Part shown: in pieces, positions 12,001-18,000 of the stretch | Layout: every line of letters starts with the position of its first letter | Position numbering within the stretch: position 1 is the first letter of the stretch | Virus genome (UHGV): UHGV-0250870 | Origin: a virus | Direction: 5' to 3' (one strand) | DNA length: 44,878 nt | Position numbers: made by a program

Positions 12001-15000
12001 TGGTTCGGTTTGACATTGAAGAGGCATGGGCGGAGCGGCAGTTAAAGAGGGTAACGCGATAGTGTTGTTGATTTTTCCCGAATCTGTGGTAAATTTGCTC
12101 TAACGATGGGCGTTTTATGCCTGACGTTAGAAGATTTTTTACACCCCGCCGCCTGGCGGGTTTTTTATGACTGAAATCGCGTCAGTACAGTAAACGCGCT
12201 GGTGGCGGTGAATACCTGTCTTTCAGCTTGCTGGCTTTTTCGACAAGAGTTATTGGTGTGTCACGTTAACCGGAAAAGGGAAAAAGACATGCTAAAACAG
12301 CAGGATATGACAGAAACCGCCAGAGTAGTGTTTAATGAATTAAGCGTTACCGAACCGGCGACAGTCGGGGAGATTGCACAGAATACTTACCTTTCACGCG
12401 AACGCTGCCAGTTAATACTGACCCAGCTGGTTATGGCGGGTCTGGCAGACTATCAGTTTGGTTGTTACAGACGCCTTCAGTCCTGAAGGCTTTTTTATTT
12501 GTGGTAAATGGGCGGCTGGTGGGTGTTAGGGGCACTCACCAGCCATCTGCTCATGCGTCTGGATCACAAGCAAACCTCAGGCCCACTGCTTTGCGCAAAA
12601 GCAGAATGAGCCTATCAGAGACAGGCTTAATGATCCATGCTTAATACTGTAAAAATATCCAGTTGTGAGTTAATCAACGCCGACTGCCTGGAATTTATCC
12701 GGTCGTTACCCGAAAATTCTGTTGACCTGATAGTCACGGACCCGCCGTACTTTAAAGTGAAGCCTGAGGGCTGGGATAACCAGTGGAAGGGCGACGATGA
12801 TTACCTGAAGTGGCTGGACCAGTGTCTGGCGCAGTTCTGGCGGGTGCTGAAACCTGCCGGAAGTCTTTACCTGTTCTGTGGTCATCGCCTGGCATCTGAT
12901 ATCGAAATCATGATGCGTGAACGCTTCAGTGTGCTGAACCATATTATCTGGGCGAAGCCGTCCGGACGCTGGAACGGATGCAACAAGGAAAGCCTGCGGG
13001 CGTATTTCCCCGCCACAGAGCGCATTCTGTTCGCGGAACATTATCAGGGGCCGTATCGTCCGAAAGATGCCGGGTATGCGGCGAAGGGCAGTGCACTGAA
13101 ACAGCATGTGATGGCCCCGCTGATTTCTTACTTTCGTGATGCGCGCGCGGCCCTGGGGATAACGGCAAAACAGATTGCAGATGCCACAGGAAAGAAAAAC
13201 ATGGTGTCGCACTGGTTCAGTGCCAGTCAGTGGCAGCTACCGAACGAAAGCGATTATCTGAAATTACAGTCGCTGTTTGCCCGGGTGGCAGAAGAGAAAC
13301 ATCAGCGCGGTGAACTGGAAAAGCCCCACCACCAGCTGGTGGATACGTATACGTCACTGAACCGGCAGTATGTGGAGCTGCAGAGTGAATATAAGCATCT
13401 GCGGCGGTATTTTGGTGTGACGGCGCAGGTGCCGTACACGGATGTGTGGACACATAAACCGGTGCAGTTCTATCCCGGGAAACATCCGTGCGAAAAACCG
13501 GCAGAAATGCTGCAGCAGATAATCAGCGCAAGCAGTCGTCCGGGTGACCTGGTTGCAGATTTTTTTATGGGCTCAGGTTCAACGGTAAAAGCGGCACTGG
13601 CGCTCGGGCGTCGTGCGATTGGCGTTGAACTGGAGACCGGACGTTTTGAGCAGACAGTCAGGGAAGTTCAGGATTTAATCGTTTGAAACGGATGAGATTG
13701 CAGAATTAATTACGCACCATTATTATTCTGCTCCCGGCCCTTTAGCTCAGTGGTGAGAGCGAGCGACTCATAATCGCCAGGTCGCTGGTTCAAATCCAGC
13801 AAGGGCCACCATCACATACCGCCATTAGCTCATCAGGAAAGAGCGCCAGCCTTCGAAGCTGGTTGCGCGGAGTTCGGGTCCCCGAAGGCGGTCCATTATC
13901 TGTATCCTGCGTTGTTAGCTCAGCCGGACAGAGCAATTGCCTTCTAAGCAATCGGTCACTGGTTCGAATCCAGTACAACGCGCCACACTTATTTTCCCTG
14001 GCTCGCTTTTGCGGGCTTTTTTTTAAATGTCTCACAATTCAGGCGGTTGACTGTTGTCTGGTTTGCGGGGAGTTTGTTAAAAGAAACTGGCATGGTGAAT
14101 CCCCCTGTGCGGAGGGGCAATCAGCGAGTAGGTATATGGGATAATCGCGGATTCAGGTGCTGGTACTGAATTCACCGGGAGGCACCCGGCACCATGCAAT
14201 GGCACATAGCGCCACTCTCCAGCCCCTCTCCGGAGGGGCTTTTCTGTGCCGGATACATCACAGTTTCTGGAACCTTAGGTACTACAGTATCAGTCAGGGT
14301 GCTATATTTTCAGATGTGATGAAAGCCTGTCAGCAGGCAGGGCGTATCGGAAATGACCCAGTAGAGAAAACGTTGACTCAGATACCGGTGCTGAGTTACC
14401 GGGAAACCGGCATCACATGACCGCTATCCTTCCAGGCCCATCCGCTCCGGTGGGCCTTTTTACTGCAGAAAACAGGTTCCCCGTTAAATGCTATGTTGCT
14501 CACAATTCAGTAAGTTGACAGTTGCCTGTCAGACTGGGCATTTGTTAAAAAAATTTCGCATGGTGAATCCCCCTGAGCGGAGGGGCGACTGGTGACGGTA
14601 TAATCTCTGATTATCAAAACGAGAATGACGCGGGTTTAGTGGCACCGGGCTGAACTCACCGGGAGGCACCCGGCACCATGTGCATGATGATACAGATACG
14701 CGGCTTTAGCCCCTCTCCGGAGGGGCTTTCTTATGGACAAAAAAAGCCCGCGCTGGGAGACGCGGGCGGCAAGGAATAAACAATAAAACGTGAAGTAATA
14801 TTTCAGCTGGCGAATAATACCCCATAGTAATCACTCTGCGCAACTGCGCGGTCTTTTTCGAATTGCGGGCTGTAGTCTCCCTTCTGCCATTGTCCTGTAA
14901 CTTCCGGACTTCAGCCTGCTCCTTATCTGACTCACAACATTATCCCGCCCGGGAGGATTCATGGCATTTAAACACTATGACGTGGTCAGGGCGGCATCGC

Positions 15001-18000
15001 CGTCAGACCTTGCGAAACGACTGACACAAAAACTGAAGGAGGGCTGGCAGCCGTTTGGTAGTCCGGTGGCCATAACCCCTTATACCCTGATGCAGGCGAT
15101 TGCAGCAGAAGGTGATGTGGTCGTCAGTGGTGCAACTGAGCCGGAGTGGTACTACGTCATCGTACTGGCCGGGCAATCCAATGCCATGGCTTACGGTGAA
15201 GGGCTTCCGCTTCCGGATTCATACGATGCGCCCCATCCGCGCATTAAGCAACTGGCCCGTCGTAACACAGTGACTCCCGGTGGTGAAGTATGCGTATTTA
15301 ACGACATCATTCCTGCTGACCATTGTCTGCATGATGTTCAGGATATGAGTACGATTAACCATCCCCGGGCTGACCTGAGCAAAGGGCAGTACGGCTGTGT
15401 CGGACAGGGCTTACATATTGCCAAAAAAACTGCTTCCGTATATCCCTAATAATGCGGGGATCCTGCTGGTACCATGCTGTCGTGGTGGTTCGGCATTCAC
15501 CCAGGGCACGGAGGGGACATTCAGCGAGTCCACGGGAGCCAGTCAGGATTCGGCTCGCTGGGGAGTGGGTAAGCCGTTATATCAGGATCTGCTTTTCCGC
15601 ACGAAGGCAGCATTGCAGAAAAACCCGAAAAACGTTTTGCTGGCGATATGCTGGATGCAGGGGGAATTCGATATGACGAATGCCAGTTACGCCCAGCAGC
15701 CAGCAGCATTTCTTGCAATGGTACAGCAGTTCCGTGCTGACCTTGCCGGGCTGGCGGCGCAGTGTCACGGTGGAAGTCCGGCATCAGTCCCCTGGATTTG
15801 TGGCGACACGACATACGCGTGGAAACAAGAACACGGTACGCAATATGAAGTGGTATATGGTGCATATAAAGGTAAAGAATCCCAGCAGATTTATTTTGTT
15901 CCCTTTATGACCGATGGTAGCGGAGTTAATACACCGACAAACAACCCGTCAGAAGATCCTGATATTGCCGGGTCTGGTTATTACGGTTCGGCATCCCGAA
16001 CGAACAAAAACTGGGTATCATCAAATCGCCAGACGCATTTCAGCTCATGGGCGCGTCGTGGCATTATTCCCGATCGTATGGCAACTGCTATTCTGAACGT
16101 AGCCGGTCGCACCTTAGCCTTCATTAGTGGTAAGGCACCGGAAATCAAACCCTCGCCCGGCGGCGACACGCCATCGGGGCCGTCTGAAGATGCATCCGTA
16201 CGCACAATCTCCCTGTTGCCGACAGCCGGAGATGCTGCTGCGCAGGGCTGGAGCATTAAGGATGGCGGAATTCAGTTGTCAGAGGGTGTATTTAAGATCA
16301 CCAAGCAGAGCAATAAAACCTGGTGCCTGATGCATCCGGTGGATGACGCAATTACCCTGCTGACACATGGCGGCAGACTGACCTGTAAGTTCCGCCTCTC
16401 AGGCGTACTGACCAACAATCAGTTCGGGCTGGGGATTTATCTGTATACGGACGCTCCCGTTCCTGATGATGTGGCGATGACGGGTACTGGTAATCCGTTC
16501 CTGATGTCTTACTTCACTCAGACCACTGACGGCAGAGTGAATCTGATGCATCACAGGAAAGCCGTAAACACGAAGCTGGGGGAGTTTGGCGATTACGGTA
16601 ACGACTGGCAGACGCTGGAGCTGGTGTTCACCGCCGGCAGTGCCACGGTTACTCCGAAACTGAATGGAGTGGCTGGCCCGGCATTCCAGGTCATAAAAGA
16701 CAGTCTGACACTGGGGCTGAATGCGCTGACGCTGACGGATGTTACAAAAAGTGCAGCGTATGGCGTTGAGATAGAAAGTCTGGTGCTGGAGATAAATGCA
16801 CCGGCATCATCATAAAAAGTGAGCCAGCCAAATGGAAGGTATCGTTAAACTCACCGGTAGTGTCAGTGGGTCGTCTGAGATGCCTGCATGAGTTATCAGA
16901 GCCATCAGTACTTAACTGGTGGCTTTTTTTATTGTTGTCAGCTTCCGGATAACGGGAGACGGGGTATGTACCAGATGGAAAAAATCACAACAGGTGTGTC
17001 ATACACCACGTCAGCGGTGGGAACGGGCTACTGGTTCCTGCAGTTGCTGGACAGGGTTTCCCCGTCTCAGTGGGCGGCAATAGGCGTGCTGGGGAGTCTG
17101 CTGTTTGGGCTGCTGACATATCTGACTAACCTGTATTTCAAAATCAGAGAGGACCGTCGTAAGGCTGCACGGGGAGAGTAAAGCGATGAAGAAAAAATAC
17201 GAACTGGTTGTTAAAGGGATAAATAATTACCCGGATAAGATTACTGTTACTGTGGCACTGGAAGTTGGTGGGTATCCGTCACTGTTGTTGCCAGATGTGG
17301 CTATTAGTCTTGACCGTACTGAAGGTGCCACGCTGGAGTTTTACGAAGCTGAGGCGAAAAAGCAGGCGAAGCAGTTTTTCATGGATGTTGCTGCCGGGTT
17401 ATGTGAAGGGAACGAACCGTTGCCGGAAAAGCGCCCCGTGATTTTAGAGGCGCAGAATGTATGGATAACCTACAAAGGAAATCTACCGGGAAGAATTACT
17501 GGTTCTCTGAAGACTCCACCGGAATCACAACCTTAATTCACTGACCGGAACAGATAAACCTGTCCGTGGGCAGAAACCGATAAATCCTGATAAATATCCA
17601 TGAACGCAAAAATCAGATACGGCCTGTCGGCTGCCGTTCTGGCGCTGATTGCCGCTGGTGCGCCTGCGCCTGACATTCTCGACCAGTTTCTGGATGAAAA
17701 GGAAGGTAACCACACCACGGCATACCGTGATGGTGCGGGGATCTGGACCATCTGCCGTGGTGCCATCATGGTGGATGGTAAACCTGTTGTTCCAGGCATG
17801 AAGTTGTCGAAGGCAAAATGCGACCGGGTTAACGCCATTGAGCGTGATAAGGCGCTGGCATGGGTGGAGAAAAACATCAGAGTGCCACTGACCGAACCCC
17901 AGAAAGCGGGGATCGCGTCATTCTGTCCGTACAACATTGGTCCCGGTAAGTGTTTCCCGTCGACGTTTTACAGACGAATTAATGCAGGTGATCGAAAAGG

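Follow-up and report, generated by a model that had tools for sequence, protein, structure and literature searches.

A rare nanS-p allele of a non-Stx prophage, split by one additional adenine in an A6 tract

NanS-p proteins, as published, are composed of a DUF1737 domain, a SASA domain and, at the C-terminus, a lectin-like domain; four SGNH blocks are recognized in the SASA domain, and block IV has been found in the forms RSSH, RASH and RPTH (PMC10462455). Their genes sit between Q/stx and S, and non-Stx prophages have them too; in O157 Stx2a phages a variant, CTR3, is known in which nanS-p is interrupted by an insertion sequence (IS) (PMC10462455). For gp84 of phi24B, which is a NanS-p, a 2026 preprint reports that the DUF1737 is cleaved off the esterase and then decorates the capsid, and that DUF1737 proteins mostly consist of this single domain (bioRxiv 10.64898/2026.04.10.717836). 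Here we describe a nanS-p gene in the virus genome UHGV-0250870, whose whole stretch of 44,878 nucleotides is referred to as the window, and in which the reading frame of this gene is broken by one additional adenine. An earlier reading, made from the sequence alone, had offered sequencing or assembly error, a true pseudogene and phase variation as explanations. Our analysis points to a nanS-p pseudogene of a non-Stx prophage, a genuine null allele that is passed on by inheritance and probably arose through replication slippage in a run of six adenines (A6), and we put the probability of this reading at roughly 0.85.

The split gene and its assignment to NanS-p

The gene is divided over two open reading frames (ORFs) on the plus strand. 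ORF1 (14961-15449) encodes the N-terminal fragment of NanS-p, 162 amino acids (aa) long; its ATG lies 4 nt downstream of a Shine-Dalgarno-like ribosome-binding sequence, GGGAGG, which was read from the sequence at 14951-14956 (plus strand), and its TAA stop is at 15447-15449. It contains DUF1737 at aa 3-50 and the SGNH block I motif GQSN at aa 71-74, with the nucleophile Ser73, and it ends in an out-of-frame tail of six residues, TASVYP, directly before the stop. ORF2 (15397-16815, 472 aa) is in the +1 frame and encodes, from 15430 onward, the remainder of NanS-p, that is SGNH blocks II-IV, then a linker rich in Pro and Ser and, at the C-terminus, the lectin-like domain (DUF6645). The only candidate start for ORF2 was a GTG with a weak AAGGG 5' of it. 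The two ORFs overlap by 53 nt, and inside this overlap lies a homopolymer of seven adenines (A7, 15423-15429, plus strand), which is A6 in intact alleles. A 1-nt insertion took place here, in the longest homopolymer of the esterase gene, all others being 5 nt or shorter. When one A was deleted in silico, a single ORF of 617 codons was obtained, which reads ...GLHIAKKLLPYIPNN... across the repaired site. The sequence-only reading had held that the two overlapping ORFs rebuild a DUF1737 plus SGNH/SASA esterase, that GQSN lies in the first part, and that the frame changes at 15423-15429, where six adenines would read through; the ORF coordinates, the Pfam domains and the repaired frame agree with it in each respect.

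The closest complete E. coli genomes (e.g. NZ_CP070048), at 99.6% identity, carry an intact 1854-bp coding sequence annotated as 'SASA family carbohydrate esterase'. In the alignment of these genomes with the window the sole indel was one A of the run, besides seven substitutions downstream. Judged by this comparison, ORF1 and ORF2 are not a chance pair, since one uninterrupted coding sequence of 1854 bp occupies the same position in the closest genomes.

Assignment to the family was supported by several sequence matches. In ORF1 the DUF1737 match (PF08410) had an E-value of 2.2e-16 and a score of 59.9 bits against a cutoff of 24 bits, and ORF2 matched SASA (E=1e-8) and DUF6645 (E=1e-16) in Pfam. 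The repaired protein could be aligned to solved structures, aa 59-379 to NanS/YjhS of E. coli (PDB 3PT5, E=3e-122) and aa 421-613 to the crystal structure of a NanS-p C-terminal domain (PDB 6YP6, E=1.9e-28). The catalytic residues were mapped by means of this 3PT5 alignment and the published block motifs (PMC10462455), and the four SGNH blocks of the repaired reading were located as GQSN at aa 71, CCRGGS at aa 172, WMQGE at aa 231 and RQTH at aa 356. The block IV form RQTH was also present in a divergent A6 allele. DUF1737, the four-block SGNH/SASA domain, a jelly-roll C-terminus and a site in the late region, all traits of NanS-p, were thus found in the repaired gene. A single intact frame through the three domains was not, as the A7 run shifts the frame after Lys156. 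On these matches, and in agreement with the published description, the family assignment to NanS-p, proposed earlier as a nanS-p-like sialate O-acetylesterase, is secure. The copy in the window is a pseudogene member of NanS-p and not a functional one.

Recurrence and frequency of the A7 run

A 162-aa ORF1 product identical to that of the window was encoded in three other public assemblies, all of which have A7. The first, ERZ27304206 from ENA (L004), has a length of 49 kb; over 12.5 kb this contig matches the window at 99.96% identity, and it contains the A7 run together with all seven substitutions. ERZ28616820, likewise from ENA, differs at one base, and in the Logan assembly SRR27662395 the A7 run is joined to a different 3' allele. 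Because the A7 run travels with lineage-specific substitutions across assemblies, it is heritable and not a miscall. A fifth A7 was found in IMG/VR. The allele that contains it shows only about 87% identity, and for this reason it most likely stems from an independent event. Within the same allele class a run of five adenines (A5) was also found, so that slips appear to go in both directions.

To count run lengths in complete E. coli genomes a 101-bp query was used, in which an A6 copy appears as a one-gap match at 99.0%. With the flanks of the window type, 472 A6 records and no A7 record were retrieved from the complete genomes, and with the flanks of a second type (L007) the numbers were 740 A6 records, at 99.0%, and again no A7. 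An exhaustive scan of IMG/VR for A7 yielded one instance in the whole collection. When a pattern allowing A5 to A9 was searched there, 118 A6, no A7 and one A5 were seen among the matches listed, and the same pattern gave 84 A6 and no other length in a collection of metagenome contigs. The A7 pattern itself had no match in the metagenome contigs and none in the GTDB species representatives. A8 or A9 was absent from the metagenome contigs and from the IMG/VR matches listed, as searched with the A5-A9 pattern. At the protein level, 605 contigs encoded the intact 617-aa product of the nearest allele, as against 2-3 with the 162-aa fragment. The homologues are single ORFs of 1854-1863 bp, and A7 was seen in 5 assemblies only.

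Comparing the run length with that of other prophage copies, a check suggested by the sequence-only reading, thus gave A6 nearly throughout, with A7 at or below about 1%. That reading had also asked whether homologues might show two ORFs natively; a few copies do so with the same mutation, but more than 99% of the homologues are single ORFs. About 5 of some 66 full-length IMG/VR copies (L101, L014, L120, L088 and L009) had other single-base indels, either real or draft-assembly errors. In one of them the same run was shortened from A6 to A5, and in another A5 at 15028-15032 had become A4. The A6 tract is the weak spot of the gene for slippage, with A5 and A7 both seen, and still the alleles of other lengths amount to about 1% or less. 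Recurrence together with rarity fits a rare null allele maintained in one lineage or more, which was the true-pseudogene option among the explanations first proposed.

Consequences of the insertion and alternative explanations

The extra base would have been introduced by slipped-strand mispairing during DNA replication, at the longest homopolymer of the gene, where A6 (AAA AAA, Lys-Lys) became A7. As a result the 0 frame is lost after Lys156 and the stop of ORF1 follows six codons on. Translation from the normal start would yield a 162-aa protein with an intact DUF1737 and the first third of the SGNH fold, Ser73 included. The remaining 1.37 kb, with the oxyanion residues of blocks II-III, the block IV His and the lectin-like domain, would be out of frame and without a convincing start. 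The catalytic Ser73 is located in ORF1, and blocks II-IV, including the catalytic His of block IV, in ORF2. With the two residues separated into different frames, neither product is expected to be an active esterase, and a product of ORF2 started at the GTG would be without the nucleophile. Loss of this esterase copy would be tolerated, plausibly through other nanS-p copies: E. coli genomes that carry nanS-p have a median of two copies and a maximum of 13, and E. coli has a chromosomal nanS as well. Since RNA polymerase modified by Q, which resists termination, transcribes the late operon, the lysis genes are not expected to suffer a polar effect.

Three other explanations were weighed against the null allele. 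Homopolymer indels are the commonest assembly error, A7 occurs in no complete RefSeq E. coli genome, and several IMG/VR draft copies have single-base indels elsewhere in the gene that are possibly errors, so the true sequence might be A6 and the extra A a miscall in the assembly of the window. We consider such an error very unlikely. The same frameshifted product recurs in three more assemblies, some with contig names that suggest short-read assemblers, ERZ27304206 ties the A7 run to the lineage through the seven shared substitutions, and thousands of copies with the same flanks in the same kinds of data read as A6. The A tract could also be a contingency locus, at which reversible slippage turns the esterase on (A6) and off (A7). 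This is in line with the natural occurrence of A5, A6 and A7, with A7 in two allele classes, and with one 5' haplotype that is found with both A6 (L001) and A7 (window, L005, L006); Lys-Lys was encoded as AAAAAA in every copy retrieved, although the searches demanded AAAAAA. In contingency loci the tract length often differs between closely related strains, and homopolymer tracts of this kind are usually at least 8-9 nt long. Neither trait was found at this A run. The functional tract is only A6, and A7 here, which is short for such a locus, and off-length tracts made up about 1% or less wherever they were counted (none among about 1,200 complete-genome records and 84 metagenome contigs, and one A7 in all of IMG/VR against 118 A6 among the matches listed). 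As a gene of the late operon, the esterase is expressed chiefly in cells already bound for lysis, where a heritable switch would have little role, and other copies are broken by lesions of a different kind (an IS or rearrangement, indels at other sites), as random decay predicts. Phase variation, the third of the options raised at the outset, was thus not supported and seems to us highly improbable.

A further explanation is that the A7 allele is functional and makes mostly a stand-alone DUF1737 protein plus a little full-length esterase by rare +1 slippage. On AAA AAA A, tRNA-Lys could re-pair perfectly in the +1 direction, which would restore the exact wild-type protein. ORF1 keeps DUF1737 intact, for which the capsid module of phi24B is a precedent, and a DUF1737-only fragment of 75 aa is widespread (at least 1000 contigs). 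The two-ORF layout is not conserved, however, with more than 99% of the homologues in frame, and no stimulator of slippage was found at the A7 run: ACT, an ordinary codon, occupies the A site in the 0 frame, the sequence has no Shine-Dalgarno-like element at the spacing known from prfB, and the 91 nt downstream fold no better than shuffled sequences (z=-0.56). The tracts that give efficient transcriptional slippage are longer than A7. In addition, the roughly 105 residues of truncated SGNH fold in ORF1 are unlikely to fold well, and the head of this prophage is of the HK97/lambda type and not the phi24B capsid on which binding was shown. Recoding at the A7 run therefore appears very doubtful. 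The same holds, with hardly any probability left to it, for a re-purposed allele in which a free DUF1737 module for capsid decoration is the main product and occasional +1 slippage, ribosomal or transcriptional, adds a small, tuned amount of full-length esterase. If true, this would be a two-product gene like G/GT of lambda, born by a single mutation, but nothing was found in support of selection for it.

With regard to the null allele itself, we also analysed the seven substitutions private to the lineage of the window and ERZ27304206, at 16031, 16261, 16325, 16368, 16406, 16565 and 16751 (plus strand). Each of them replaces an amino acid once the frame is restored (P357Q, N434D, Y455C, Q469H, A482V, G535V and N597S), and four of them were unseen in the other alleles examined. 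A482V and G535V alter positions that do not vary among 59 distinct alleles; P357 is likewise invariant in these 59, and Q is found there in a more divergent allele of the metagenome set. The ratio of nonsynonymous to synonymous changes was 7:0 in the lineage and 201:185 among intact alleles (Fisher p=0.016), a ratio of 7:0 being compatible with neutrality (0.75^7 ≈ 0.13). These changes hint at a relaxed constraint after inactivation. Two origins of the set were considered and rejected. No sampled allele supplies it as a whole, which speaks against a takeover from one of them, and the changes are of mixed types, at odds with an adenine-targeted mutagenesis as by diversity-generating retroelements.

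Several points weigh against the null allele as we have set it out. Three of the seven private changes recur in other alleles (16261 and 16751, plus 16031 in an allele of 85% identity), which makes them weak evidence for decay. All seven fall within the final 785 bp of the gene, and the 3.4 kb upstream are free of such changes and identical to the nearest relative. Simple drift after inactivation does not explain this clustering; the import of a 3' segment would be another possible origin. The loss of esterase activity is deduced from the expected fold, and a trace of full-length protein may be made by +1 ribosomal or transcriptional slippage on A7. The length of the A7 run in the window was taken from assembled sequences, backed through the other assemblies, and the independence of the four assemblies was judged by their differing accessions and names only. 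What the data show is the insertion and its passage through a lineage, how rare it is, which family the gene belongs to and that the catalytic residues are split apart. Slippage as the mechanism, the inactivity of the products and the tolerance of this loss would follow as the most plausible account.

The allele in the window is a rare, real frameshift of a well-known accessory gene of prophages, and biologically it is ordinary. Its value lies mainly in annotation. Gene callers in public metagenome assemblies labelled the locus as two genes, and it should be annotated as one frameshifted nanS-p pseudogene instead of a 'DUF1737 protein' and a 'SASA/DUF6645 protein'. The copy should also be left out when the capacity of a strain for 9-O-acetylated sialic acids is inferred.

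Prophage context and comparison with known systems

The esterase is situated in the late region of a lambdoid prophage of E. coli, downstream of a Q-type antiterminator that heads the late operon (11241-12062, plus strand; Pfam Antiterm, E=5e-51), a DNA methyltransferase (12637-13686) and a tRNA triplet (CAT, Arg-TCG and Arg-TCT; 13736-13985, plus strand). Between the triplet and the esterase, in the slot that stx occupies in Stx phages, two copies of the small RNA (sRNA) STnc100 were found (14061-14251 and 14529-14738, plus strand; 165 and 136 bits), each of which ends in the same GC-rich hairpin. No stx gene was present in the prophage window. Directly 3' of the esterase a P21-type holin S is encoded (16966-17181, plus strand), which was also called as a gene in the ERZ27304206 contig, and a terminator-like hairpin with a T-run lies between the two genes (16898-16936, plus strand). 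The holin is followed by a DUF1327 protein, a lysozyme (17600-18133) and Rz.

The lysis and structural module (17000-41000) was 99.8% identical to a prophage of strain CUVET21-H2 (NZ_CP115343.1, 2066000-2077500; L211). That prophage carries a different, intact nanS-p of 653 aa, with genes for TerB, DUF3927, DUF1378 and DUF826 around it. As the structural module matches CUVET21-H2 and the nanS-p allele differs there, the prophage is, by this comparison, a mosaic with a junction near 17182, just past the holin. No complete genome was found to contain the same prophage with either A6 or A7, and the best match of the gene, at 99.6%, was without the seven private changes.

In the early region DicF sRNA (175-226, minus strand), hok/sok (9041-9216, plus strand) and a QueH-like epoxyqueuosine reductase (8287-8973, plus strand) were identified. 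In the region 1395-4449 of the window (minus strand), an IS21-family element with istA (2562-4061) and istB (1810-2565) parts a cI/LexA-like repressor into a helix-turn-helix portion (4150-4449) and a Peptidase_S24 portion (1395-1757). The repressor gene of the prophage thus appears to be split by IS21, as a second lesion of the prophage. The head genes (20805-27102, plus strand) encode, in this order, the terminase large subunit, a 673-aa fusion of prohead protease and major capsid protein (Peptidase_S78 plus Phage_capsid) and the portal, which is found 3' of the capsid gene instead of preceding it. The tail assembly chaperone (Phage_TAC_1) ends in ...CAG AAA AAA G TAG, and a Phage_tail_T ORF (29766-30047) follows in the -1 frame, in the G/GT arrangement of lambda, the two together spanning 29320-30047 (plus strand). 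The heptamer A AAA AAG at 29733-29739 is a genuine programmed -1 frameshift site.

This G/GT pair resembles the esterase of the same window in that overlapping ORFs meet at an A-rich slippery run. In G/GT, however, the run is a conserved -1 heptamer that is universal in the family, whereas the esterase needs a +1 shift, no stimulator was seen at its run, and nearly all of its homologues are in frame. The chromosomal NanS (YjhS, 3PT5) shares the catalytic domain, aligned over aa 59-379, and block motifs including GQSNAMAYGEGLPLP and RxxH. NanS lacks DUF1737 as well as the lectin-like domain and is not carried by a phage, and in the window the catalytic domain is split over two frames.

Closest in organization are the NanS-p of Stx phages (L0105/Z1466 of 933W; vb_24B_21, which is gp84, of phi24B), with the same three-domain layout and the same slot in the late operon, from Q and the tRNAs to holin S (PMC10462455). 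The esterase of the window was 88% identical to 'yjhS' of phage JLK-2012 and 87% to the copies of Stx1a phages, and only about 52% identical, in amino acids, to the NanS-p of Stx2a phages. Its protein would have 617 aa, compared with 636-657 aa in the NanS-p of Stx phages. It further differs from the Stx phages in that stx is absent upstream, with the two STnc100 sRNAs instead, and in that the frame is broken by an extra A.

Inactivated or altered prophage copies that leave an N-terminal fragment with DUF1737 are also represented by nanS-p genes interrupted by an IS or rearranged (PMC10462455). To these we compared the 75-aa DUF1737 fragment (P0003/P0022 pair), which ends in ...VLARHSRP just before GQSN and whose 513-aa 3' partner with a foreign N-terminus was found on 62 contigs; this break was probably caused by IS insertion or rearrangement. 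With the 75-aa fragment on at least 1000 contigs, such lesions of nanS-p are far commoner than slippage in the A run, whereas the single-base insertion of the window was seen in about 5 assemblies.

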